A stretch of 64,000 nt of DNA, taken from assembly GCA_000146465.1 (NCBI GenBank), contig CP001949.1. One strand, 5' to 3'. The notes beneath the pieces were generated by a model, which ran no database searches, had not been told where the DNA came from, and saw only the letters and a program-made list of their open reading frames with translations. A program made the position numbers and the translations under genes. Below, one piece after another: positions 46,601 to 58,182 of this stretch (its first letter is position 1; each line of letters opens with the position of its first letter).

Positions 46601-49600
46601 AAGACAAAGCTGATTACTTTAAGCATGCATAGAGGTATAGAGAGCTCTGACTTCATCGGGAATTTTGTTTTTGAGAATTCAAAGGTGGTATGGAAGGATG
46701 GGCCTCTTGTCAGAGCAATGAAGAACGGAGAAGCATTCCTGATTGACGAAATCAATTTGGCGGAGGATTCTGTGCTTGAACGACTCAACAGTGTTTTGGA
46801 ACCACAGCGCACCCTATACATAACGGAGACAGGAAAAGAGGTGGTTGCACACGAAGGATTTCGAATACTGGCGACTATGAATCCAGGAGGGGATTTTGGA
46901 AAAAGAGAGTTAAGCCCAGCACTTAGAAATAGATTTTCGGAGATGTACTTTGAAGTCTCCTCGGATGAGATTCCTCTGGTATTTGATCATCTCATAGATA
47001 AACGGCTTGAAGAAGTAGGTATGCCAAAGGAGAGCAGAGATATGTTCAAGTCTTTGGCGAGGTCACTTGATACGTCTATCAGGAAGCTTGAACTTGTGGT
47101 TGATTTTATATACAGGCGCTATACTGGGAGATTTGAAGAGGTTGTTTGCATGGAGATGTTTGATGCAATAAGTGCATGGAGAGAAGCACTAGAAATTATC
47201 GAGGCGAACAGTTCTGAAATAGAGACGAGATACATTGAAAACGAAAAGATGTTTGGGGCGTTTCCATACCTAGTAGGATACAAAAACCCATCCTCATTTG
47301 ATTTTGAATCTAAAACACCTACTTTAAATCTTAGGAGAGTACTCCGAGCGATGGGATTGGGAAGAGGAATTATGCTGGAGGGAGATCCTGGAATAGGAAA
47401 GACAAGTATAGTGCAGGAGATAGCGCGAAAGATGGGGAAAAAGTGTATTAGAGTGAATCTAAGCGAGCAAACGGAGCTATGCGATCTGATCGGAAGTTAT
47501 CTCCCAATTGACGGGGAAATCCGCTTTGTAGAAAGTGAGTTACTACACAGTCTTAGGAACGGAGGATGGATAATTCTTGACGAGATTAATCTTTGTACTC
47601 AGAGTGTGATTGAAGGATTGAATTCTGTGCTAGACTACAGAAGAAAGCTCTTTATACCTGAAGTCACAGTTGATGTTCATAGGGACACCCGAATATTTGC
47701 AACTCTCAATCCATGCAGCTCTATAAATGGACGAAAGATGCTTCCAAAAAGCTTTCTTGATAGGTTTGTAAGAATCAAGATGGACGGGTACACGGCGGAC
47801 GACATTGCACAAATCCTCCACAAGATGTTTCCAAGACCTGTGATAGTGAGTTCGGCCAGTCTAAGAGAAAATATCCGAGCAAATCAAATGGGGAGTTTGG
47901 AATCTAAGAATATTAACTATTTTATAGATGAGTCTATTGTTAGGATTGGATCTGCTCACATCCAAAGAAAGGGAGGAAACCTGGATTTTGTACTAGTTCA
48001 TTCGCAACTCCAGCAGATGGAAATGATCATGAAATGTGTGGAGATGAATATTCCACTTGTTATATCTAGAGGAGTGGGGAGAGATTCATTACTTCGGTTT
48101 GTATCTTCTGTGTTTGGGCAGGAAATGATGCTCTTCAACTGCCATAAGGATACGGACGTGTGTGATCTTCTCGGGCAATACCAAAAGATGGAAAATGGAA
48201 TGTTTGAATGGCGTGATTCTGCAATTGTGCAAGGGATAAAAAGAGGAATGATTGTTGTCTTTACGGGAGTTGAGTTTGTAGAGAAATCTGTTTTTGACCG
48301 GTTAAATCCTTTGTTTGAATCGGAAAGAATATTGAATATATATGAGAGAGGGATTGACACAAATGTTGTAGTTAATCCATCGACACGATTAATTCTGTTA
48401 GTAAAAGAGCCCAGTATGCTATCACCGGCACTACTTGATAGATGTATGCATGTGGAATTGAGTGATAGACTCGACTATATTGATTTGTGGAAGTTGTTTG
48501 TAAGGCAATCCAACTCTAGTTCTGTCTTTCATGAAGACTTTTATGGTCTCTCTATGGACCGCAGCCAAATTGATTTTGGATTGGATTTAAAGAGATTGAG
48601 GTTGTTGGAGGTATGGCCTAGTTTTCTCGGCAGACATCTTTGTGGTGTATGGAATGCTTTGGAGGAATCTAGGATTGACGAGATGTTCCAATTCCAAAGA
48701 AAAAACATAGAAAATTATGAGATAGATTTTGAAATTCTTCATTTCTACAACAAGATCCGACTTTATGTTGAAACACCAGACGACGATGTGTCCAAAATTA
48801 ACCTACTTAAAAGCATTTCTACCATGAGCTCTGAAGATCGGAAAGCAGTGGCATTTATCAAGTCTGCAGATCTCTCGATCTTTAGCCGTTTTCATGATCA
48901 AGGAGGGTGTTCTCTTAACTTCCCGAAATCATCCAGAGATCTAAAAGTAAAGGCCATCAGGTGCCTTCGAGATAAGAAGTTTTCTGATTACAAAAAGTTA
49001 AGAATGATTGTGGAGCAGCTTCCGGATGTGGAATGGCTTCTCCATTCCGACTTCGATATGTTTTTCTTTGAGTTTATCGAAAGATGCTTAAATGATCCTC
49101 TGGAGATGGTAAGGAAAGGATTGATAGCAGAGATGAATGAGTTTGAAAACAAAAGCCTTTCGGAGATATATGGTACTATGAAGAATATGTACAAATATGG
49201 AAAGGGATCTATAGAGAAGATGGTGGATAGATATGAAAAGGGTATCCAGGAATATAAGGCCAAAATCCAGGAGATTGAAGGAAGGATGAACAGAGACTAC
49301 CTGAAGTTTAGGAATTCCTTAAGAGGCCTAGACTTTTGCTCATATATGTGCGGAGATAAGGCCTTATACTCAGAATTCGATGATATTTTGGACTATTATT
49401 TGATATACTTGTTTTATAGGTGGTCAAACGGAGAAGGATGCTCGGGAATGTGTAAAATCAAGCGCATAGGGGTAGATTGTACGAAATACGGGGACAGAAA
49501 TAGTGTTGAAGAAGAATCTGGAGACTATGCGAGCTATGGTATCCTGTGCTTAAACTTAATTGACCGCGGTTTGGAGATTCTTCCACTCTTAGGGAAGATT

Positions 49601-52132
49601 GACTGCAAGTCTTTAGGACATGAATTTTCAAGATATCTAAACTCGTTGTACTACTCGAGGTCGGTGGACAGACATAGTTTGATTTTGGAGGGAATTATAT
49701 TCGACAGAAGGATACATGTCAAGGAAGCCGATTGGATTGATCATCTGTTAGAGTTTAAGGAAAAAGATCTGAACAGGTGCCTAATGTTAGTGTTCAAAGT
49801 CAAGGGAAGGGCTCAGATTATTGAAAGGGAAACAACCCGTTTGGAAATAGAAGAGAAGTTGGTCGACCTTATGGATCAAGAAATGCTAGAGCTCCCTATA
49901 TTCACAAGCATTGGGTATCTCATGGAATATGGAAGGAAAAAAGTAGATTCTGAAGACTACGAAGCTCTTCTACAGAAGGACATAAGTAACGCAGACTCAG
50001 ACTCGGATAAGATCTTGGAATCGACAATAGTTATATCAGGACATCGGGACAAGAGAAATTCCAGTGCTGATAAAGAGTTTGGACTCCATTCCATAATGGA
50101 AGCCTTAGAGAGATTTTATAAGGATACGTCTGTCTGTGACATAGAGAGAAACTACAAGTACTTTCTGTACCTAATCACAACGCCATTTGACTTTGAGATG
50201 GCTGAAAGATATTTTCTGGACTGTTCTGTTTATGAGTTTGTGGACAGGATTAGACATGCACGGGAAATGGCAGTTAAGAATGAAGACCCCGTTTTCTACA
50301 ATGTGACTTTGAAGTACGTTTCATTTGAAGTAGAAAGTGCTTATGAAGATAGAATTCGAGATGCTAAGTCGAAATTAAGGAAGGAACCCAAGCTATTTAG
50401 AAAGACCCTGGAGGATTTGAAGAAGTTCCTTATATTACCTGTCACAAATGTTCTAAATCTTAAGTTTCCTCAACCGTATCCTCTTTGCCAGGGATATCAT
50501 CCCAATGTATGTGCAAGCCTCCTTAGGGAGAGATCGGATTGCGAATGTGAGGATTGGATTGAGTTTTCAAAGAAGTTTGACCGAAAAGAAGTTGAAAGAA
50601 TTTTTGAAAACAACAAAGTGAAAAAGAAAGATGTACTTGGGCGCTTCCTTAACAGGATGCCTGAAAAGATGTTTTCTAACTCCGAAGTATGCCTAGGTAA
50701 GATTGTTAATCAAATGACAGAGGACAGAGCAATAATGGGTCTTACTCTTGCATGTATCGAGAATCCATACATCCCACTTATGTATTTCACATTTATATTT
50801 GGGCGTCGAGAAGAAGAGGTTTCCGAGGAGGAAACAGGAATGAAGAGCGGAACGGGAAATGTCAATGTGAGTGACCAAATTAAACATGAAGATGAGATAG
50901 ATGATGAGTATGGAGAGCGAGAGAAAGTAAGTGAAAGTGATGGGATAGATTTTGACAATGATGGAAGTGTCTCGACGGTTTCCGAGTCTGAGGAAGAAGA
51001 ATATGAAAGCGGAGTAGATGGATACAATGAAGAAGAGAGTGAAAAAGATGAAAATGAAAACGAAGAAGAACTCAAGAATGAACAAGATACAGAAATGGAT
51101 GTTGAAGACGAGGGCTTTGGATCGGAGAAAAGTGAAGATGGAGGAGAAGAACAATTGGGTCCAGATGTCTCAGAAGAAGATACAGATGCTAGTAATGTCT
51201 TGGACAGCACGGAATCAGAAAGTGAAGGAGAGGCAAAGTCACAAAATGAAGAAGATTCCAACTTCCACAACGAGCCTAAAACAAGCGAATACCAATTTAA
51301 AGAAGGAATTCTTAACAAGAATCAGACGTGTGAGGTTGCAGACAATTACGACAGATATGTTGCAGGGAATAACCAAGAGGATCGAGCACTTTGTCAAGGA
51401 GAGGGGAATGAAAAGATTTCAGGAGATGAAGATTCTGGAAGTGGAGATGCATTTGAATCTACTGTAAGAATTAGAATAGAGGAAGAGGATTGTACTAAGT
51501 TGACGAATATGCTCAAGATAATTATGGAGTCAAGAAAGGGAAGCAAGTACAAAGGAGACTTTAAGAGTGGAAAGAAGCTGAACATGAAGAGGTTGGTTCC
51601 GTATATAGCCAGTGGATTCAGAAGAGATAGGATTTGGATGAGGCGCCAAAGAAATGATAAGAAGGATTATATCCTTCGCTTATTTATTGACAACAGTAAG
51701 AGTATGTATAACCAGGAGATGATTGACACTCTTTTGTCTCTATATTCGAAGATAAACAAATCCTTCTCTCTGCTTGGGATACCGGTTGAAGTTTATAGAT
51801 TTGGCGAACTCCTGGAAAGAAGTACGGTAGAAGAAATGAGATTCAGTGACTCCCAAACCATGATCGACTGGATCGACGAGTTTGATGATGGAATCAACAT
51901 TATTTTGACCGACGGTCTCTTCCAGAATGTAGGACATCATCACCCCAACTTCCTAGTCCTGCTGATCGACAAATGCAACGTCAAGAGAATGTCTAAAGTA
52001 ACTGTTTCGGAAGGATCCGTGTTTGTCCAGAGATACCTAGATACCTTCCCTCTTAAATATTGCATTATTTCAAGTGTAGATGAACTTGAGTCTACATTCG
52101 TGATGGCATTAAGCGAACTTATTAGTTCCTAA
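43676..52132 (+). CDS. MDN1: midasin (Rea1/MDN1) AAA+ ATPase, reduced 2818-aa form
   Basis: Several Walker-A P-loops in tandem AAA modules (GDTGVGKTS about 44630, GDTSTGKTS about 45661, GETGIGKTK about 46546, GDPGIGKTS about 47383, ...). Long D/E-rich acidic segment at 50.8-51.45 kb. C-terminal VWA/MIDAS DxSxS motif LFIDNSKSMYN at about 51690. Confidence 0.9.
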   Translation: MKHKKQKTGEARVGSLEKFERLAREAVDLKVPVGVYGEVGRSSLVSRLHSGIYSKGGRLVEIDSREITDARTLGGFYAVKEGDVEYMKGLLIESMERGDWVLFKRIDKNHGLMQYLFTVVKYRRLLGNDGREVLAHEDFRIFFTSNDILDMDDIVFVGPLGFMFEEAMMMFEIACVRQLLMKVFEVISTHWKGCSKEKGEECQRSCLKIACKNNGWCLFKESTVCGAHFRSLQRIKKRLEGSNGTKTEERVKVYQSVCNVLLRHDSDSLRYLLALTDIPDISLHGLDFAKTSSVEWGIFNLLWNIKNRDHTLLIGDTGVGKTSMIQYLSSKSHFFLGVATKLRVVNMSADFDGTDLIGGYGTLDINKAIERICNQERLSTPVCYGNKEKLEYLREKLSLRKEDGLKHEGAIKKIDDLLKLLEKKVHFVYKKGILTECMENGEWLLLDEINLSSEETLDLIDGVLGKKEILLYESGDLRPLEIHPGFMLFGCMNPGGDFGKKKYEGVEFNSVHIHDFSTSLKDINLVIHSVLKYEISEERKSKIGEFFLELKNKVRKGELGNIVEPLISGRSLVRVLNFIRRRAEKGFEQSVWEGFDLFVFTQLDFVSRSIAISLLSKYFATQSLSVERTKVKDGFVLTHRIQTYLRIMELGVLSNCPLLLQGDTSTGKTSMVLFLSKEMNKRVIRINNHEHTEASDYIGSFTCTSRGVEFQEGVLVTAMRRGYWVILDELNLASSDVLEVLNRLLDDNKQIYIPEIDEVVVPHENFRVFATQNIGYGGRKGLSKAFRNRFVEMFFNEGGEEEILEILHGGSGLPKSFCKKMVEVYSGLRSKRSVNALVTLRDLFKWSGRVPRSLSEVCFLGMSIIYERQREEKDRRWVFQVFSESFGEVEVERYGRIITGKEDKEEIVIGKKGTNLKDLSLAAEELYGKKLVFTDTFRKMISLTVLAWESKEPILIVGETGIGKTKICDVVSSLFKTKLITLSMHRGIESSDFIGNFVFENSKVVWKDGPLVRAMKNGEAFLIDEINLAEDSVLERLNSVLEPQRTLYITETGKEVVAHEGFRILATMNPGGDFGKRELSPALRNRFSEMYFEVSSDEIPLVFDHLIDKRLEEVGMPKESRDMFKSLARSLDTSIRKLELVVDFIYRRYTGRFEEVVCMEMFDAISAWREALEIIEANSSEIETRYIENEKMFGAFPYLVGYKNPSSFDFESKTPTLNLRRVLRAMGLGRGIMLEGDPGIGKTSIVQEIARKMGKKCIRVNLSEQTELCDLIGSYLPIDGEIRFVESELLHSLRNGGWIILDEINLCTQSVIEGLNSVLDYRRKLFIPEVTVDVHRDTRIFATLNPCSSINGRKMLPKSFLDRFVRIKMDGYTADDIAQILHKMFPRPVIVSSASLRENIRANQMGSLESKNINYFIDESIVRIGSAHIQRKGGNLDFVLVHSQLQQMEMIMKCVEMNIPLVISRGVGRDSLLRFVSSVFGQEMMLFNCHKDTDVCDLLGQYQKMENGMFEWRDSAIVQGIKRGMIVVFTGVEFVEKSVFDRLNPLFESERILNIYERGIDTNVVVNPSTRLILLVKEPSMLSPALLDRCMHVELSDRLDYIDLWKLFVRQSNSSSVFHEDFYGLSMDRSQIDFGLDLKRLRLLEVWPSFLGRHLCGVWNALEESRIDEMFQFQRKNIENYEIDFEILHFYNKIRLYVETPDDDVSKINLLKSISTMSSEDRKAVAFIKSADLSIFSRFHDQGGCSLNFPKSSRDLKVKAIRCLRDKKFSDYKKLRMIVEQLPDVEWLLHSDFDMFFFEFIERCLNDPLEMVRKGLIAEMNEFENKSLSEIYGTMKNMYKYGKGSIEKMVDRYEKGIQEYKAKIQEIEGRMNRDYLKFRNSLRGLDFCSYMCGDKALYSEFDDILDYYLIYLFYRWSNGEGCSGMCKIKRIGVDCTKYGDRNSVEEESGDYASYGILCLNLIDRGLEILPLLGKIDCKSLGHEFSRYLNSLYYSRSVDRHSLILEGIIFDRRIHVKEADWIDHLLEFKEKDLNRCLMLVFKVKGRAQIIERETTRLEIEEKLVDLMDQEMLELPIFTSIGYLMEYGRKKVDSEDYEALLQKDISNADSDSDKILESTIVISGHRDKRNSSADKEFGLHSIMEALERFYKDTSVCDIERNYKYFLYLITTPFDFEMAERYFLDCSVYEFVDRIRHAREMAVKNEDPVFYNVTLKYVSFEVESAYEDRIRDAKSKLRKEPKLFRKTLEDLKKFLILPVTNVLNLKFPQPYPLCQGYHPNVCASLLRERSDCECEDWIEFSKKFDRKEVERIFENNKVKKKDVLGRFLNRMPEKMFSNSEVCLGKIVNQMTEDRAIMGLTLACIENPYIPLMYFTFIFGRREEEVSEEETGMKSGTGNVNVSDQIKHEDEIDDEYGEREKVSESDGIDFDNDGSVSTVSESEEEEYESGVDGYNEEESEKDENENEEELKNEQDTEMDVEDEGFGSEKSEDGGEEQLGPDVSEEDTDASNVLDSTESESEGEAKSQNEEDSNFHNEPKTSEYQFKEGILNKNQTCEVADNYDRYVAGNNQEDRALCQGEGNEKISGDEDSGSGDAFESTVRIRIEEEDCTKLTNMLKIIMESRKGSKYKGDFKSGKKLNMKRLVPYIASGFRRDRIWMRRQRNDKKDYILRLFIDNSKSMYNQEMIDTLLSLYSKINKSFSLLGIPVEVYRFGELLERSTVEEMRFSDSQTMIDWIDEFDDGINIILTDGLFQNVGHHHPNFLVLLIDKCNVKRMSKVTVSEGSVFVQRYLDTFPLKYCIISSVDELESTFVMALSELISS

Positions 52133-52253
52133 GGATTACAACGGGTTTTGAACCAAATAAAAACTTCTTTAGAAAATTAAGACCTTTGAAATCTAGACAA
52201 GTATTGAGCATTGTAGGATCTCCATAGAGAAACAGGATTGAGAATAATTTAAT

Positions 52254-52571
52254 TCAGATTGCACCTATTTTAGAGGCGATTTGAATGGCGTCTCCCTCTT
52301 TGTCAAATCGGACATATGCCTTCTTCCCATGCTTGTTGATCAAGGTGTTGACCTTCTTGACTTTGCATCCATAGAGCTGGGTAACGGCATCTCTAATTTC
52401 CGGCTTGGTCGAGGTCTTCTCCACATAGAAGACCAGGATGTTGAACTGCTCCATGCACCTTGCAGCCTTCTCTGTGGTGAGTGCATAGAGTATTATGTCG
52501 TGTGGGGTGTTTCTTGGCATCTTTGAGACGAGGTTCCTAGGATGCTTAAAGTTCCTCTTCGGTGTATCCAT
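52254..52571 (-). CDS. RPL23A: 60S ribosomal protein L23a (uL23)
   Basis: ILYALTTEKAARCMEQFNILVFYVEKTSTKPEIRDAVTQLYGCKVKKVNTLINKHGKKAYVRFDKEGDAIQIASKIGAI aligns to uL23 ([52 protein letters not shown]...KKAYVRL....ALDVANKIGII); N-terminal extension largely absent. Confidence 0.8.
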   Translation of the reverse strand: MDTPKRNFKHPRNLVSKMPRNTPHDIILYALTTEKAARCMEQFNILVFYVEKTSTKPEIRDAVTQLYGCKVKKVNTLINKHGKKAYVRFDKEGDAIQIASKIGAI

Positions 52572-52651
52572 GGGGGCAAGGAGGAAGAGGGTTTTTGTTA
52601 GATTGTTGTTCGGATGTTGGAAACAGTTTGTGGGGTGTATGTGGAAGCACA

Positions 52652-52724
52652 GCCTCTGTAGCGCAGTGGTTAACGCGTTCGGCTGTTAACCGAAAGGTCG
52701 AGAGTTCGAGTCTCTCCAGGGGCG
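52652..52724 (+). tRNA. tRNA-Asn (anticodon GUU)
   Basis: GCCTCTGTAGCGCAGTGGTTAACGCGTTCGGCTGTTAACCGAAAGGTCGAGAGTTCGAGTCTCTCCAGGGGCG: anticodon loop CTGTTAA, T-loop GTTCGAGTC, acceptor GCCTCTG/CAGGGGC; strongly resembles eukaryotic tRNA-Asn. Confidence 0.85.
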
Positions 52725-52730
52725 TTTTTT
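52725..52730 (+). terminator. Pol III oligo-T terminator of tRNA-Asn
   Basis: TTTTTT immediately after the tRNA 3' end. Confidence 0.5.
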
Positions 52731-52806
52731 GCCCTTGGAAATCAGGTCGTCTCAGGTATTTTGTTCGTTTTCTATGGAGTCAAATTTACCGTCTTTTTTA
52801 TCCCAA

Positions 52807-53697
52807 ATGACAGAGTCTTTTCAGAAGCTGGAGAAGATCGGAGAGGGAACTTACGGAGTTGTCTACAAAGCAAGAGAAAGAAATACAAACAGAATAGTTG
52901 CATTAAAGAAGATAAGGCTTGAAAACGAGAACGAAGGAATTCCTGCTACTACAATAAGGGAAATATTACTCTTAAAAAACCTAAAGCATTCAACTATTGT
53001 CGAGCTGAGTGACGTAATCTATAATAACAACAAAATGTATCTTGTATTTGAATATGTAGAACTAGATCTCAGAAGATACCTGGACAAAATGAATGACGAA
53101 GGACGACCTGTTGACAAGAACTTCGTTAGAAAAATGTCCTTTCAGCTGTTAACCGCAATGGAATATTGCCATTCAAGAAACATTTTTCATAGAGATTTAA
53201 AGCCTCAGAACATTCTTATAGATCCTCAGGAAAATATCAAGCTTGCCGATTTTGGACTTGGAAGAGCTGCAGGTGTTCCTCTAAGAACCTATACAACAGA
53301 AGTGGTAACACTTTGGTACAGGCCTCCGGAACTACTTTTGGGATGTAAATATTATGATGCATCTGTAGATGTATGGAGTGCTGCTTGCATTATATCCGAA
53401 GTTGTTCTTATGAAGCCTTTTTTCCCAGGAGACTCGGAAATAGACCAATTATTTAGAATATTCAAGGTCCTTGGGACTCCAAACAACTCGAGGTGGTCGA
53501 ATGTAGAGAACTTTCCAAACTATAAAGTAGAATTTCCGATTTGGAACCCTGTCGATTTAAAGACGATTTTCAAGGCAGATCCCGACTTCATCGACCTTAT
53601 TTCGAATATGCTTGAGTACGATCCAAGAATGAGAATGACTGCTAAAAGTGGTTTGTCTCACAGATACTTCAAAAACATGGTGCCTATACTTGGATGA
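52807..53697 (+). CDS. CDK1: cyclin-dependent kinase 1 (Cdc2/Cdc28 homolog)
   Basis: MTESFQKLEKIGEGTYGVVYKARER...IPATTIREILLLK (PSTAIRE-type helix)...HRDLKPQNILID...DFGLGRA...WYRPPELLLG. The track ORF starts at 52729, inside the tRNA terminator; start set at MTESF, which aligns with the CDK1 N-terminus (MESNLP at about 52774 is the alternative). Confidence 0.85.
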   Translation: MTESFQKLEKIGEGTYGVVYKARERNTNRIVALKKIRLENENEGIPATTIREILLLKNLKHSTIVELSDVIYNNNKMYLVFEYVELDLRRYLDKMNDEGRPVDKNFVRKMSFQLLTAMEYCHSRNIFHRDLKPQNILIDPQENIKLADFGLGRAAGVPLRTYTTEVVTLWYRPPELLLGCKYYDASVDVWSAACIISEVVLMKPFFPGDSEIDQLFRIFKVLGTPNNSRWSNVENFPNYKVEFPIWNPVDLKTIFKADPDFIDLISNMLEYDPRMRMTAKSGLSHRYFKNMVPILG

Positions 53698-53787
53698 GAT
53701 TATCCCCAGCAGTTACTTAGATACTATCTTTGGAATTAGTTTCTCGATAGCTAAGACTTTAGAGAAGTCAGATATAAACCTTTAATC

Positions 53788-54411
53788 TTATAGGACCTCT
53801 GTTCTGGGCATCTTCTCAAGCTCCTTGTTCAGCCATCTGAATGCATCGATGATTTCTCTTCCGTTCTCATCGTTGGCCGAAGTCATCGATCCCGCCTGAA
53901 GAACACTTATCGGCACAACAAGTGATGGCCCGCTGTACTTCTCAAGGCCAAACTCGTTCTTGATACTCCTCATCACCTCACTCCTCTCATGTTCTTTCAC
54001 CAGGTCAATCTTGTTTGCAAGCACCAGCAGCGGCCTGGGGCTGTTCAGGATGTTCAGTATCCTCCACAATTCCTCGCTCGACTTTCCAAACCTCTGCGGA
54101 TCTGCACAATCAACCATGTATATGATCCCACATCCCTCGTTGATGTACTGATGCCAGAACCTCATGAATGAGTTCTGTCCTCCGATATCCCACACTTGGA
54201 ACTTCATGCTCCCCAGACTGACATTTTCGCAGTTGAACCCAAGTGTTGGGACGGTTTGGTGGACTTCTCCAGTCTGCAGATACAGTAAAAGAGTTGTCTT
54301 CCCGGCACCGTCTAGGCCTATCATGGTTATCGACCTCTCAGACTGTCCAGAGAATATTGCTCGGAGCCTTGTGTACAATATATTGTTTACCTTGGAGATC
54401 ACTGCTCCCAT
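53788..54411 (-). CDS. ARF-family small GTPase (Arf/Arl)
   Basis: MG N-terminus (myristoylation-type), P-loop GLDGAGKTT, WDIGGQ switch II, NKID guanine-specificity motif. Confidence 0.8.
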   Translation of the reverse strand: MGAVISKVNNILYTRLRAIFSGQSERSITMIGLDGAGKTTLLLYLQTGEVHQTVPTLGFNCENVSLGSMKFQVWDIGGQNSFMRFWHQYINEGCGIIYMVDCADPQRFGKSSEELWRILNILNSPRPLLVLANKIDLVKEHERSEVMRSIKNEFGLEKYSGPSLVVPISVLQAGSMTSANDENGREIIDAFRWLNKELEKMPRTEVL

Positions 54412-54577
54412 TGTTTACCCCCGATATTTTTGTTTTTTATATGGCCTGTTTTAATTCCTCATGGCTTTATCTTGGAGTGTGCATGGGAACAAGGGAGAGG
54501 AAAGATCAAACAAATTCAATACACATTCTCGGAATGAAACAAGGAAACAATATAAGAGAGATAAGCTTTAGAGGGCC

Positions 54578-55693
54578 ATGAGAAGAACATTAGGAGCGGT
54601 ATTAATTTTTGCCTTGAAGATGGCATGCGACGTGATAAGGCTTGTTCCAACATGTGATGCGGAGTGCATGAGGGGAAGACTCTTGGCCTCATATTACTCA
54701 AGTCCTGCCGGCGTGAATCTTCTGCAGACGGCAGCCAAAAATGCGCCAGCCAAGAATCTTGTAGGGGGCAAGGTGACGGTGGTGGGTTTGAGCAGCCGCA
54801 GTGCAAGTAAGCCTCCGGCCCCAAGGACGCCTGGAGGAGGGCAAATAACTGTAACAGCCACTGTTGTGAAGACTGTGCCGATGGAGATACCTCGAAGTGT
54901 GCAACCGCCTGTTGTGGTGCTACAGCCCAGATATCTTGTACAGCCAATGCCTATTCCGGTGAATGCAATGAGTGTGGCTACAGTACCAAAGAGGAATGCA
55001 AAGCCACTCCCTGCAAGGCATGTTGTGGAAGAGAAGCCTCATGGGGAGAATGAGATGATCAACAGGATAGGAAGGAAGGTGAACCTAATATATACCATGT
55101 TAAGTACTCTAGGACAGAGATATCTTCAGATGCCTCCGCAGACGCCAAGGGTTGTGTTGGTTGCACCTGTTTCTACAAGGACAGTCTTCAAGACAGTGTC
55201 GTCTCCTGCGCCGGCGAGAAGCAGCGCTCCTGCTTCGACACAATCTGCCTCGGTAATCACTCTTACAAAATGCATTTTCTTGCCTCCTCAGACCGAGAAA
55301 AAACCCCAAGCACAGACTTCCAGCACCAGCACTAGCACCAGCCCCGTGTCCTCTGCAAAGGAGACTCTGGGGGGAAATAAGACGGTGGGCCCTAGAAGAA
55401 TTCCCAAGAAGCCGCGGAATATAGATTTCGGAGAGAGCAGCAGCTCGGAAAGCTCCATGTCCGAGCAAAGGGAGGAGAAGCCTCTGTACATGTTGAAGTC
55501 CACAGGGCCTGGGCGAAAGAAGAGGAGAAGAGGAGATCCATTTATTGATTGTTATTTGAAAGGAGATCCATCCACCAGATGCACGTCGGACAGTTCCGAG
55601 GGGAGGCCGGACATAGGCGATGCAGTTATCTACAGGAGCGATCTCGACAGCGGCGACGAGATCATATATCTTAGTGAGCTGTTGCAAGGATGA
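54578..55693 (+). CDS. hypothetical P/S/T/V-rich protein within GC-rich island
   Basis: Longest sense ORF between the ARF GTPase and the convergent CDC7 gene; antisense ORFs here are attributed to GC-richness. Basic KKRRRG patch near the C-terminus suggests nuclear localisation. Confidence 0.35.
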   Translation: MRRTLGAVLIFALKMACDVIRLVPTCDAECMRGRLLASYYSSPAGVNLLQTAAKNAPAKNLVGGKVTVVGLSSRSASKPPAPRTPGGGQITVTATVVKTVPMEIPRSVQPPVVVLQPRYLVQPMPIPVNAMSVATVPKRNAKPLPARHVVEEKPHGENEMINRIGRKVNLIYTMLSTLGQRYLQMPPQTPRVVLVAPVSTRTVFKTVSSPAPARSSAPASTQSASVITLTKCIFLPPQTEKKPQAQTSSTSTSTSPVSSAKETLGGNKTVGPRRIPKKPRNIDFGESSSSESSMSEQREEKPLYMLKSTGPGRKKRRRGDPFIDCYLKGDPSTRCTSDSSEGRPDIGDAVIYRSDLDSGDEIIYLSELLQG

Positions 55694-55731
55694 CGGCAAC
55701 ACACACCAAATATTATTAAAGCATGTGTTTT

Positions 55732-56850
55732 CTATGCAGGGTCCCGATGTGTTTTCAAGCCGTCGAAGAATGGATGGTTGAGGGCGTCTGGAGCAGTGAT
55801 CCTGGTTGAAGAGCAGAGATCAAGCATCCTGTAGAGCAGGTCGTATCCCTCGGAGCCGACCTCGGCCCACGGGTTAAGCGACTCGATAATTGTCTCGAAG
55901 GGGATTCTCTCCTCGGGAATTGTGTCTATGTTCGACCTCCACAGTCTTCCGTAGAACTTTGCAGCCTTTCTCATTTCTGCGTGTCCAAAGATCGTTGCAA
56001 TCTCGACAATGGCGTCGATATCCTCGGACGAGTAGAAGAAGGGATATTGTGCAGTCAGGATCGTCAAGAAAATCACCCCCACAAACCACATGTCTATGGC
56101 TCTGGTCTGGTGAGGGTAGCGGAACAGGACCTCTGGTGCTCGGAACCCACGTGTCCCGGCCCGAGGAGCCTTCATCTGCGGCCTGGAGTCTCTCTCGTAG
56201 TATCCCGGAGGCTTTGTCTTCGACACAATCGAGTTGAAGAAGAGCAGGGGTGTCTGGGGCTTGCTACTGTCCTTTGGAAGATGTTCCTCCCTGCGGTCTT
56301 CGTACTGGGCAAGCCCAAAGTCTATGAGCATCCCTCTTCCAGTCTCCTTATTGTACAGAAAGTTCCCTGGCTTCAGGTCTCTGTGTATTATGCCATTGCC
56401 ATGCACATGGTCTATCGCTTCCAACAGGTTGTACAGATACTGCTTGATGTCATTCAGGCCTGCATTGGAAATAAACTCCCGGAAGTCGATGGGCTTGAAG
56501 TACGGAAAGACAGCAATCACCTGGTCTTCGTTCCGGAAAACCCCGAGAAGCCCCATGCAGTTCCTCTTTCCCTCAAGTGCCTTCAGAAACGTCAGTTCCT
56601 CGAGAACCCTTGCTGGAGAGCTGGTTCTTGTTATTACCTTCAGAGCGACATGTCTCCCGGCCTCTGCATCAAGGGCCTTGTACACAACACTGAACGACCC
56701 TTCGCCTATTTTTTCTATGGGCGTGTACTTTGGTATGATGAAGGACAGATGCTTGAGGTCGGACTCTGGGATCTTTTCCTCTTCCATCCCCCTTTCCAGG
56801 TTTTTTATTTTAAGATTGGGTGTGGCTCTGCCATACCGATTGTCTTTCAT
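55732..56850 (-). CDS. CDC7: CDC7/Hsk1-like protein kinase
   Basis: [39 protein letters not shown] (the FLYN + G-x-L-x-DFGLA pattern is characteristic of Cdc7), kinase insert before [13 protein letters not shown]. Confidence 0.7.
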
Positions 56851-56862
56851 GGCTGGAAGGGG

Positions 56863-58059
56863 ATGGAGATAAAGGGTGGGAAGGGTAGCCCTTTAATGTG
56901 TGGAGGACTCAAGGCCGATCTGTTTGTTAGATACAAACAAATGGAAAGAAAGCTCAAGCTTCTCGAGATAAGGGAGGCGTATGTGCGCAAGGAAGTGGAG
57001 ACGCTGAGGAGGGAAGAGAGACACAGCAAAGAGGAGCTGGATAGAGTCAAGAGTGTTCCGTTGATAATGAGGCAGTTTCTGGAGCCTATCGACAACTCGA
57101 CAGCAATTGTGGGGTCGACAGCAGGGAGCAACTTTGTTGTCCGAATACTGTCTACTGTGGACCGAGAGCTGCTGAAGCCAAACACTACAGTTGCGCTGCA
57201 CAGACACTCGAGTGCGATTGTGGATGTGCTCCCTCCGGAAGTGGACAGCACGATTCCTGTAATGGGGGAGTCTGAGAGGCCGGAGGTGACGTATGCAGAT
57301 GTGGGAGGGCTGGATGTGCAGAAGCAGGAGATAAGGGAGACGGTTGAGCTTCCTCTGCTGCAATCTGAGTTGTACAGACAGATAGGAATTGATCCTCCGC
57401 AAGGGGTGCTGCTGTACGGGCCGCCTGGAACGGGGAAGACGATGCTTGTGAAGGCTGTGGCGAACCATACAAAGGCTACATTTATAAAGGTCAACGGGTC
57501 TGAGTTTGTGCAGAAGTATCTTGGAGAGGGCCCGCGGATGGTGCGGGATGTGTTCAGGCTTGCAAGGGAGAAGGCGCCGTCGATTGTGTTTATCGACGAG
57601 GTGGACTCGATAGCAACAAAGAGATTTGATGCGTCGACATCTGCAGACCGGGAGGTGCAGCGGGTGCTTATTGAGCTGCTGAACCAGATGGACGGATTTG
57701 ACCAGACGGCAAATGTCAAGGTGATCATGGCCACAAACAGGGCAGACACAATCGACCCTGCACTGCTCAGGCCGGGACGGTTGGACAGGAAGATAGAGTT
57801 TCCGCTTCCCGACCGGAGGCAGAAGAGGCTTGTGTTCAATGCCATCACATCGAAGATGAGCCTCAAGGACGAGGTTGACATTGAGAGCCTTGTGTGCAGG
57901 CCCGAGAGGATAAGCTGTGCAGACATCAATTCGATCTGCCAGGAGGCGGGAATGCTTGCAGTGCGGGCCAGCAGATACATGGTTACGCAAAAGGACTTTG
58001 AAGAGGCATACTCAAAGGTTGTTGAGAGAAGCGACACAAGGCCTGCATTCTACAATTAA
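56863..58059 (+). CDS. RPT3: 26S proteasome regulatory ATPase subunit Rpt3 (PSMC4)
   Basis: Near-collinear identity with PSMC4 across the AAA domain: [144 protein letters not shown]. The track ORF from 55981 includes spurious GC-rich upstream extension antisense to CDC7; start set at first ATG after CDC7 (56896 is the alternative). Confidence 0.9.
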
Positions 58060-58182
58060 ATAGTTTGTGTTTTCCCGACTAAGAGGCCTGGGCTGGATCT
58101 AAAGATGTGAACATCAAAGAAGGTATTTAATTGCTCTTATCCCGACTTCCCTTCCGTTTCGGAAGAGTGCCTTATCTCCTCC

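Follow-up and report, generated by a model that had tools for sequence, protein, structure and literature searches.

In Encephalitozoon cuniculi GB-M1, the segment EXT6-2 is inverted between two chromosome ends, has very high GC relative to the chromosome core, carries genes for an ADP-ribosylation factor and PRS6B at its termini and lacks genes of the 'inter' family; on one chromosome it adjoins EXT7-2, a stretch of core-like genes, RL12 among them, without GC enrichment (Dia et al. 2016, BMC Genomics 17:34, PMC4704409). The same study names GC-biased gene conversion among the factors known to shape base composition. The 2023 telomere-to-telomere paper noted that shifts in nucleotide bias coincide with repeated segments and that repeated segments besides rDNA are not conserved between species. 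Here we analysed a stretch of 64,000 nucleotides (the window) that its sequence identifies as DNA of the microsporidian Encephalitozoon intestinalis, and we assign a block within it as the E. intestinalis orthologue of EXT6-2. Like EXT6-2, the block ends in ARF (53788–54411) and RPT3 (56896–58059), occurs as two inverted copies, each close to an end of a different chromosome, at the same sites, and is high in GC (0.504 versus 0.404) without 'inter' family genes; on one chromosome it likewise adjoins a non-GC-enriched, L12-bearing stretch (58143–62897). Dia et al. 2016 dealt with E. cuniculi only, without the cross-species conservation, concerted evolution and single-copy outgroup contrast given here, and the block is an exception to the 2023 statement on cross-species conservation. 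The features concerned are as follows.

52246–52728: L23 duplicated segment, 483 bp, with the L23 gene at 52254–52571 on the minus strand
52807–53697, plus strand: single-copy protein kinase, 296 aa (Pfam Pkinase), lying between the two duplicated segments
53774–58142: duplicated GC-rich block, 4,369 bp, with ARF, a 371-aa protein, CDC7 and RPT3; orthologue of E. cuniculi EXT6-2
53788–54411, minus strand: ARF-family small GTPase, 207 aa (Pfam Arf, E = 1.5e-40), a terminal gene of the block
54578–55693, plus strand: protein without assigned function, 371 aa, low-complexity, identical in sequence to Eint_081910
55732–56850, minus strand: CDC7-type protein kinase (Pfam Pkinase, E = 1.9e-46; top matches Encephalitozoon CDC7)
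56896–58059, plus strand: proteasome regulatory ATPase RPT3/PRS6B, 387 aa (Pfam AAA, Prot_ATP_ID_OB_C and AAA_lid_3), at the opposite end of the block from ARF
58143–62897: AT-richer distal stretch, six ORFs of at least 100 aa, GC 0.33–0.42, equivalent to E. cuniculi EXT7-2
60452–60952: ribosomal protein L12 (Pfam Ribosomal_L11, L11 family), within 58143–62897

The identities that a first-pass annotation had given to the ARF-family GTPase, the CDC7-type kinase and the RPT3-type ATPase were borne out by Pfam and, for CDC7, by best matches; the gene at 54578–55693 was absent from that annotation. In the telomere-to-telomere assembly, two chromosomes each encode an ARF protein identical to that of the window. 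CDC7 has 372 aa from the first ATG, or 351 aa with the start at 56787 that the E. cuniculi annotation uses, and is nearly identical to the E. intestinalis protein (100% as reported; one residue differs). The RPT3 start at 56896 was taken from 387-aa gene calls at related loci, and the 692-codon ORF at 55981–58059 consists of RPT3 from that start plus an upstream run in frame; the antisense ORF at 56847–58037 gave no Pfam hit. The 371-aa protein matched no Pfam family, even at E ≤ 10, and is lineage-restricted, all six relatives found belonging to Encephalitozoon or close relatives. A Pfam search of the block found none of the DUF1609, DUF2463 or DUF1686 domains of the subtelomeric 'inter' family.

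The GC-rich island with sharp steps, as first described, is genuine. Between 53.8 and 58.1 kb GC is 50.4%, compared with 40.4% in the remainder of the window (z = 7.9). The 1 kb bins at 54.0–58.0 kb range from 0.48 to 0.54 and all other bins from 0.33 to 0.47; in 200 bp bins, GC rises from 0.36–0.42 to 0.49–0.51 across 53.7–53.9 kb and falls from 0.50–0.54 to 0.40–0.43 across 58.0–58.2 kb. For the segment 53774–58142 itself (GC 0.504), comparison with 1,019 other windows of 4,369 bp (mean 0.407, s.d. 0.012, maximum 0.435) also gave z = 7.9. Fitted to the whole window, a two-change-point likelihood placed the changes at 53801 and 58050, improving the log-likelihood by 88.6 relative to a homogeneous model; these points lie about 30 bp (left) and 90 bp (right) from the duplication edges at 53774 and 58142. 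The proposal of an isochore-like boundary was rejected: the island is only 4.4 kb long, has background GC on both sides and ends where the duplication ends.

Third-position GC (GC3) is 0.61, 0.52, 0.64 and 0.64 for ARF, the 371-aa protein, CDC7 and RPT3, respectively; among the 52 other genes of the window the median is about 0.45, and the duplicated L23 alone reaches 0.62. The excess is mainly silent, GC1 and GC2 being slightly raised save in the 371-aa protein, in which all positions are high (GC1/2/3 of 0.50/0.52/0.52). Spacers within the block have a GC of 0.399 over 409 bp, against 0.364 for those outside (median 0.349). The cluster of long overlapping ORFs is genuine and, as the first reading held, a product of stop depletion: the frequency of stop triplets per position is 0.028 within the island and 0.046 elsewhere. 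Both the depletion and the spurious ORFs arise because silent-site GC is raised.

The span 53774–58142 is present on both CP075167.1 and CP075165.1 of the telomere-to-telomere assembly at 99.93% identity (3 mismatches, no gaps), about 24–28 kb from one end of the former and at about 223–227 kb of the 247 kb latter. At ≥99.9% identity the block was found twice in this assembly and in three independent draft assemblies. The two copies are mutually inverted, with the core-to-telomere order running from ARF to RPT3 in one and from RPT3 to ARF in the other, and the same holds in E. cuniculi, which has two copies at the same two sites with 99.73–99.79% identity, their differences lying nearly all at the extreme block edges. 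The edges of identity in the two species agree within about 20 bp. One site is flanked by ATP-synt_D and the L29 cluster and the other by the kinase and L12, the latter being the site of the window copy. Both flank pairs recur in E. cuniculi and E. intestinalis, and one site each was seen in E. hellem and E. romaleae. E. hellem too has two copies, as seen from the genes EHEL_081900 and EHEL_100080 and also from a pair of accessions whose 385-aa products are identical. The duplication, with this exact extent, is older than the species split. Block identity across species is merely 76–79% (about 77%), as against more than 99.7% within species; the copies therefore evolve together, in concert within each species. 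Their near-identity is most likely maintained through gene conversion. Conversion with a paralogous GC-rich copy had been among the first explanations offered and is in essence the one favoured here, the island being exactly one copy of a concertedly evolving interchromosomal duplicate.

Across species, the GC excess follows duplicated status. In E. intestinalis the block genes have a GC3 of 0.52–0.64 compared with 0.37–0.44 for adjacent single-copy genes; the corresponding values are 0.63–0.76 and 0.39–0.47 in E. cuniculi, 0.54–0.66 and 0.38–0.39 in E. hellem, and 0.48–0.56 and 0.35–0.40 in E. romaleae. The comparison with related genomes that the first-pass annotation had proposed thus finds the block GC-rich in all three other species. 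Within Encephalitozoon, ARS2 and ATP-synt_D, which are single-copy, are GC-poor, whereas their duplicated neighbours are GC-rich. In a related microsporidian, the genes lie in the order CDC7, 371-aa protein, ARF, ARS2, ATP-synt_D, RPT3 in the middle of 39–51 kb contigs, and the GC3 of all six equals that of their neighbours, with no island; a second related microsporidian shows no GC island at the block genes either. In both of these relatives the block genes appear to be single-copy.

These observations are probably explained by repeated non-crossover conversion between the block copies that is biased towards GC. The island is one copy of a segmental duplication of long standing, whose two members sit close to the ends of two Encephalitozoon chromosomes. 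A crossover between oppositely oriented copies would yield dicentric and acentric products; given the opposite orientation to the telomere, only non-crossover gene conversion would be tolerable. Repeated over the whole block, such conversion would produce near-identity within species and divergence between them. Each new mutation in one copy would create a mismatch in the conversion heteroduplex, and if mismatch repair favours G/C, AT-ward mutations would be removed more often than GC-ward ones, and the silent sites of the block would settle at a GC above that of single-copy neighbours. We infer both the GC bias of conversion and its role as the cause of the excess.

GC-biased gene conversion is known in yeasts and mammals, and GC enrichment is found in paralogues undergoing ectopic conversion, among them mammalian histone and Hsp70 genes, duplicated yeast and Arabidopsis genes, and rDNA. 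Heterozygosity in the present organism is reportedly very low, which would leave little scope for allelic biased conversion. The subtelomeric duplications of yeast and human are reshuffled by break-induced replication and ectopic recombination. With these the block shares its presence at more than one chromosome end, very high identity and boundaries that act as recombination sites, but it contains conserved essential genes, not contingency gene families, and it is of old origin and has kept its place from species to species, unlike the distal repeats, which turn over. The GC enrichment of ectopically converting paralogues was reportedly described by Galtier in 2003, Kudla et al. in 2004, Benovoy et al. 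in 2005 and Escobar et al. in 2011. Like such paralogues, the block is homogenised within species, has a GC3 above that of single-copy neighbours and shows an effect whose edges follow the converted tract; unlike them, it joins four unrelated essential genes in one unit, within a 2.3–2.6 Mb genome, and its copies are inverted on different chromosomes.

A purely regional bias should lift spacers too, and the in-block spacers are barely raised. Intergenic spacers are tiny and strongly constrained (Corradi et al. 2010), and such constraint could mask a rise in their GC.

The direction of substitution was assessed by parsimony on silent third positions, which are near saturation and make the estimates unreliable; between species, 46–52% of four-fold sites differ. 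Read with this saturation in mind, equilibrium GC3 for block and flanks, respectively, was 0.54 and 0.40 on the E. intestinalis branch, 0.85 and 0.66 on the unrooted E. cuniculi branch, and 0.29–0.31 and 0.34, with no GC-ward bias, on the E. romaleae branch. By the same parsimony, the G/C-to-A/T rate on the E. intestinalis branch was 0.132 in the block versus 0.226 in the flanks, and the A/T-to-G/C rate was not raised (0.152 versus 0.149). Among E. intestinalis copies and assemblies, in which just 3–5 sites vary, four of the five derived variants go from G/C to A/T, so new mutations run AT-ward in a sequence whose composition is GC-rich.

GC-biased conversion was weighed against four other explanations. 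It is unlikely, first, that the GC was imported, the window copy being repeatedly overwritten through unbiased conversion by the copy in a GC-rich chromosome extremity. That other copy directly abuts the GC-rich L29-LSM-Maf1 segment (0.49–0.58 in E. intestinalis, 0.54–0.65 in E. cuniculi), chromosome extremities in E. cuniculi are generally GC-rich, and in the window the block stands alone between AT-rich flanks. However, the GC-rich neighbour is itself multi-copy, so the question is just moved elsewhere, and the L23 duplicate (GC3 0.51–0.65 across all four Encephalitozoon species) is GC-enriched despite GC-poor single-copy genes flanking both copies. Import also rests on the unsupported assumption that conversion runs in a single direction.

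The chances are slim that the block is instead a relic of a GC-richer ancestral genome that drifted AT-ward, the duplicated block decaying more slowly, with conversion free of GC bias. In keeping with a relic, the silent GC3 reconstructed for the ancestral block is 0.66, close to the 0.56–0.73 of a 51% GC single-copy relative; the block differs on the E. intestinalis branch by its lower G/C-to-A/T rate only, and GC decay is ongoing in E. romaleae. But neutral substitution is not retarded by conversion that lacks a bias, so a slower decay would still call for bias or selection. With four-fold sites near saturation (about 0.5 differing), a relic should have relaxed to background; the excess is instead about 10–13 GC points in three species and about 8–9 in E. 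romaleae, each tracking its own background. ARS2 and ATP-synt_D, moreover, adjoin block genes in that relative's order, yet are fully AT-shifted.

Selection on codon usage or expression for G/C-ending codons in these housekeeping genes is very improbable. It would fit an excess that is strongest at third positions and hardly touches in-block spacers. Nearby single-copy ATP-synt_D, ARS2, SRP54, RPN7, L12 and midasin nevertheless have low GC3, the block genes show no excess over neighbours in either single-copy relative, the fast-evolving 371-aa protein has high GC at first, second and third codon positions alike, and the excess starts and stops with the duplication, irrespective of gene function.

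Foreign DNA, introgression from a species of higher GC or a chimeric assembly, suggested by the sharp composition step and by a window join across the L23 repeat that conflicts with the long-read assembly, can hardly be credited and, for the island itself, is refuted: the closest CDC7 relatives are all microsporidian and ranked roughly by relatedness, four species carry the block, GC-rich in each, at orthologous sites, its four-fold divergence from E. cuniculi and E. romaleae matches that of the flanks (0.46–0.49; flanks 0.50–0.52) and indicates no recent transfer, and five independent E. intestinalis assemblies or loci have it in identical or almost identical form. The first-pass annotation was right to take the conserved housekeeping genes as an argument against a foreign origin; its suspicion of a chimera fails for the island, and its interpretation overall is partly supported.

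At the 483 bp L23 repeat, 1 kb upstream of the island, the window arrangement departs from the telomere-to-telomere assembly, and a local assembly mis-join there is possible. The L23 segment has copies on CP075167.1 and CP075165.1 in direct orientation (99.6% identical; 95.2% between the E. cuniculi copies). The kinase at 52807–53697 (GC 0.38, GC3 0.37) has a match at the CP075167.1 locus only. On the other side of the block, 58143–62897 has one copy among the loci fetched, with a gene order as at the E. cuniculi and E. romaleae loci. Not all duplicated stretches are GC-rich: in a 9.7 kb duplicate common to CP075165.1 and CP075168.1, the distal 7 kb has a GC of only 0.36–0.46. The L29-LSM-Maf1 cluster beside the other block copy is GC-rich and was predicted to be duplicated; it was then found at three chromosome ends in E. 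cuniculi (99.95% identity) and two in E. intestinalis (99.56%).

The GC-rich island read by eye in the first-pass annotation held up quantitatively. In 1 kb windows, GC was 0.48–0.54 at 54.0–58.0 kb versus 0.33–0.47 in the rest of the window, and at 200 bp resolution the upward step fell at 53.7–53.9 kb and the downward step at 58.0–58.2 kb. The segment 53774–58142 had a GC of 0.504, compared with a mean of 0.407 for other windows of the same size (sd 0.012, maximum 0.435; z = 7.9), and an unconstrained two-change-point search returned 53801–58050 with a log-likelihood gain of 88.6. GC3 of the four island genes (0.61, 0.52, 0.64 and 0.64) lay above a window median near 0.45, and spacers inside the block, considered as a means of telling a regional from a codon bias, showed a weak difference from other spacers over little sequence (GC 0.399 in 409 bp versus 0.364). 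The genome is extremely compact; the island genes are as follows.

53788–54411, minus strand: ARF-family GTPase
54578–55693, plus strand: 371-aa protein with no assigned function, identical in sequence to Eint_081910
55732–56850, minus strand: CDC7-type kinase
56896–58059, plus strand: proteasome ATPase RPT3/PRS6B

Stop triplets occurred at 0.028 per position in the island versus 0.046 outside, and this depletion accounts for the stack of overlapping ORFs, as had been proposed. Antisense island ORFs had no family match, and a 692-codon ORF consists of RPT3 plus an in-frame run upstream. The CDC7 protein matched E. intestinalis CDC7 at a reported 100% (one residue differs), followed by other microsporidia in order of relatedness. 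Identical-product look-ups with the window's own CDC7 and RPT3 gave no match; the window bears private amino-acid changes. Database representatives and the ARF protein served as queries instead, with success.

The island coincides with a duplicated segment. Two chromosomes of the telomere-to-telomere, long-read E. intestinalis assembly, CP075167.1 and CP075165.1, encode the ARF protein, and the two loci align at 99.93% identity (3 mismatches, gap-free) across exactly 4,369 bp, corresponding to window 53774–58142. Similarity ends abruptly at either edge, and the GC change points fall ~30 and ~90 bp from these edges. From core to telomere the order is ARF to RPT3 on one chromosome and RPT3 to ARF on the other, so the copies are inverted. 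A 483 bp L23 segment (52246–52728) is duplicated on the same two chromosomes (99.6% identity in E. intestinalis, 95.2% in E. cuniculi). Three draft assemblies carried the block on short contigs (5.5 and 6.4 kb) ending at the block edge or inside the L23 repeat, as expected of a collapsed repeat.

The duplication is shared across species. In E. cuniculi the block again occurs as two copies, 99.73–99.79% identical and differing almost solely at their outermost edges, and E. hellem has two as well (EHEL_081900 and EHEL_100080; the product is identical in two accessions). Neighbours are kept across species at both sites: at site 1, ATP-synt_D and a cluster of a 266–280 aa protein, L29, LSM and Maf1; at site 2, a 296-aa kinase and a stretch with ribosomal protein L12. 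Between species, block identity is only 76–79%. Because the sites are orthologous and the copies nearly identical within each species, the block copies evolve in concert, most likely through repeated interlocus conversion. Crossovers between inverted copies would be destructive, which would make non-crossover conversion the expected route.

High GC followed copy number gene by gene. In each of the four species, block genes had higher GC3 than adjacent single-copy genes.

GC3 of block genes and of adjacent single-copy genes
E. intestinalis: block 0.52–0.64; single-copy 0.37–0.44
E. cuniculi: block 0.63–0.76; single-copy 0.39–0.47
E. hellem: block 0.54–0.66; single-copy 0.38–0.39
E. romaleae: block 0.48–0.56; single-copy 0.35–0.40

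In Encephalitozoon, single-copy ARS2 and ATP-synt_D are GC-poor, and the adjoining duplicated RPT3, CDC7 and ARF are GC-rich. As controls we used two related microsporidia from public read sets, with single-copy status inferred from contig continuity. In the first (51% GC genome), six genes lying mid-contig on 39–51 kb contigs had the GC3 of their surroundings, 0.56–0.73. In the second (41% GC), CDC7, the 371-aa protein's counterpart and ARF had GC3 of 0.38–0.52, like their neighbours, with single-copy status less secure as the contig ends 125 bp past ARF. The L29-LSM-Maf1 cluster, beside the other block copy, is also GC-rich (GC3 0.65–0.80), and a link between GC and duplication predicts that it is multi-copy. 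This was confirmed: the cluster is present at three E. cuniculi chromosome ends (99.95% identity) and two in E. intestinalis (99.56%). The L23 segment had GC3 of 0.51–0.65 in all four species despite GC-poor flanking genes.

Being duplicated is not sufficient for high GC. Two chromosome ends in E. intestinalis share a 9.7 kb duplicate at 99.56% identity; its proximal part, with L29-LSM-Maf1, is GC-rich, and its distal 7 kb (locus L006 13501–20624 versus locus L015), holding subtelomeric gene families, has a GC of only 0.36–0.46. The GC-poor distal part would fit a conversion model if these repeats are young; such distal repeats are not conserved between species (PMC10158259).

Of the three explanations first offered for the island, conversion with a GC-rich second copy was thus essentially right. 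Two others might contribute in a minor way. The block may partly be a relic of a GC-richer ancestor, although conversion would still be needed, and a bias too; or its GC may partly have been imported from a GC-rich partner copy, which again needs conversion. Codon selection on housekeeping genes is unlikely, as adjoining single-copy housekeeping genes, ribosomal protein L12 included, have low GC3. An isochore-like boundary, also offered at first, is excluded by the island's small size and the return to background GC on either side. Foreign DNA, introgression or a chimeric island, the last being the remaining initial candidate, are excluded by vertical phylogeny and the block's presence in four species, by equal four-fold divergence (block 0.46–0.49, flanks 0.50–0.52), and by the agreement of independent assemblies.

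To assess the direction of substitution, we applied parsimony to silent third positions in conserved codons of E. intestinalis, E. romaleae and E. cuniculi. These tests are rough (46–52% of four-fold sites differ between species), and since silent sites are near saturation, the polarised counts are informative only as block-versus-flank contrasts.

Equilibrium GC3 by branch, to be read as block against flanks
E. intestinalis: block 0.54; flanks 0.40
E. cuniculi (unrooted): block 0.85; flanks 0.66
E. romaleae: block 0.29; flanks 0.34

On the E. intestinalis branch, the gap between block and flanks came from a lower G/C-to-A/T rate (0.132 versus 0.226). Among derived variants separating E. intestinalis copies or assemblies, four of five were G/C to A/T. 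With E. hellem used for polarisation, the terminal E. romaleae branch showed 105 G/C-to-A/T changes versus 49 in reverse (equilibrium 0.31). Only one block copy is annotated in E. romaleae, in an assembly lacking chromosome ends; its occurrence alongside the G/C-to-A/T excess is suggestive. Among the four species, E. romaleae has the GC-poorest block (0.475; locus L014, 9203–13540). An E. romaleae-like contig from a related read set (L009, 4,365 bp) stops at the block edges, a pattern typical of a collapsed repeat, and was therefore used without flanks.

Encephalitozoon genomes are tiny and reportedly near-homozygous. A broader reading, which we put forward tentatively and regard as somewhat more apt to fail than to hold as a whole, is that GC-biased repair is all but confined to sequences with ectopic partners. 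Long-standing multi-copy segments (the block, L23, L29-LSM-Maf1 and the rDNA ends) would on this view turn into GC islands, with young duplicates and single-copy DNA staying AT-rich. As part of the same reading, the ARF–RPT3 block would represent an ancient, inverted duplication of essential genes, older than the radiation of the genus and kept by non-crossover conversion only, and E. romaleae, with one annotated copy and decaying block GC, would be a natural loss-of-partner experiment. In an organism whose allelic recombination is difficult to follow, the system could be used to quantify GC-biased conversion between ectopic copies.

This element had already been recorded in the sister species E. 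cuniculi, and the mechanism is of a known class. The E. cuniculi block was described as EXT6-2, with terminal genes ARF and PRS6B, very high GC, and duplication with inversion at the ends of chromosomes X and VIII; on chromosome VIII it adjoins EXT7-2, a sub-block carrying RL12 without GC enrichment (Dia et al. 2016, PMC4704409). The island shares these features and is therefore the E. intestinalis orthologue of EXT6-2. The same study names GC-biased gene conversion among the known factors that shape base composition (PMC4704409), and shifts in nucleotide bias were found to coincide with repeated segments in the 2023 telomere-to-telomere paper (PMC10158259). The block's conservation across species is an exception to that paper's statement that repeats other than rDNA lack conservation among Encephalitozoon species. 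In the literature on concerted evolution and biased gene conversion in Encephalitozoon, we found no cross-species analysis of the block. Our analysis adds the exact coincidence of edges, the cross-species conservation of the duplicate with concerted evolution, the single-copy controls and the confirmed prediction for the L29-LSM-Maf1 cluster. The gain is modest, because both phenomenon and block had been reported for E. cuniculi; its main value is as a warning and a neat illustration. In terms of genome evolution, it offers a small, self-contained instance of GC tracking duplicated status from one gene to the next, controlled by relatives with single copies. For annotation, such a GC step is no sign of foreign DNA, breeds spurious long ORFs and marks repeats where short-read assemblies can mis-join or collapse.

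The window and the telomere-to-telomere assembly very probably derive from the same strain, as they are identical over the ~10 kb of single-copy sequence compared (48383–52245, 52729–53773 and 58700–64000), where no window-private difference was found. Across L23, the window joins midasin-L23 to kinase-block-L12, as in E. cuniculi and E. romaleae, with the complementary SRP54-L23-ARS2 join in E. hellem; in the long-read E. intestinalis assembly (loci L005 and L006) the joins are instead midasin-L23-ARS2 and SRP54-L23-kinase. The switch lies between 52503 and 52729 in the window. With the 483 bp L23 copies in direct orientation, crossing over within them would exchange chromosome ends. The discrepancy reflects either a real translocation by reciprocal exchange, overlooked in the older assembly, or a mis-join in one of the two assemblies. 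Beside the island, a 75 bp tandem array (25 codons, acidic; 58382–58600) inside a minus-strand ORF (58183–58806) has 2.9 copies in the window versus 6.9 in the long-read assembly (207 versus 307 aa of protein) and was probably collapsed in the short-read assembly. Outside the array, all four window-private base differences (52438, 52536, 56084 and 57070) fall in duplicated segments. Three alter residues that are conserved across the remaining assemblies and species we compared (RPT3 G59R, CDC7 S256F and L23 T45I). The differences may be errors made in assembling repeats, or genuine mutations that a second copy makes tolerable.

The 371-aa protein is low-complexity, with merely 35–49% identity among close species and high GC at all three codon positions, and its position between CDC7 and ARF is kept even in distant relatives. 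We considered it as a diverged Dbf4, the CDC7 partner, which was unsupported: a Pfam search of five orthologues at E ≤ 10 gave nothing credible. A contig from a related microsporidian (SRR29713750; locus L010, 10001–16210) has the order CDC7, 371-aa protein, ARF, ARS2, ATP-synt_D, RPT3. Relative to Encephalitozoon, where the genes run ARS2, ATP-synt_D, RPT3, CDC7, 371-aa protein, ARF, this order is circularly permuted, which hints that the block arose by tandem duplication or rearrangement of one ancestral neighbourhood.
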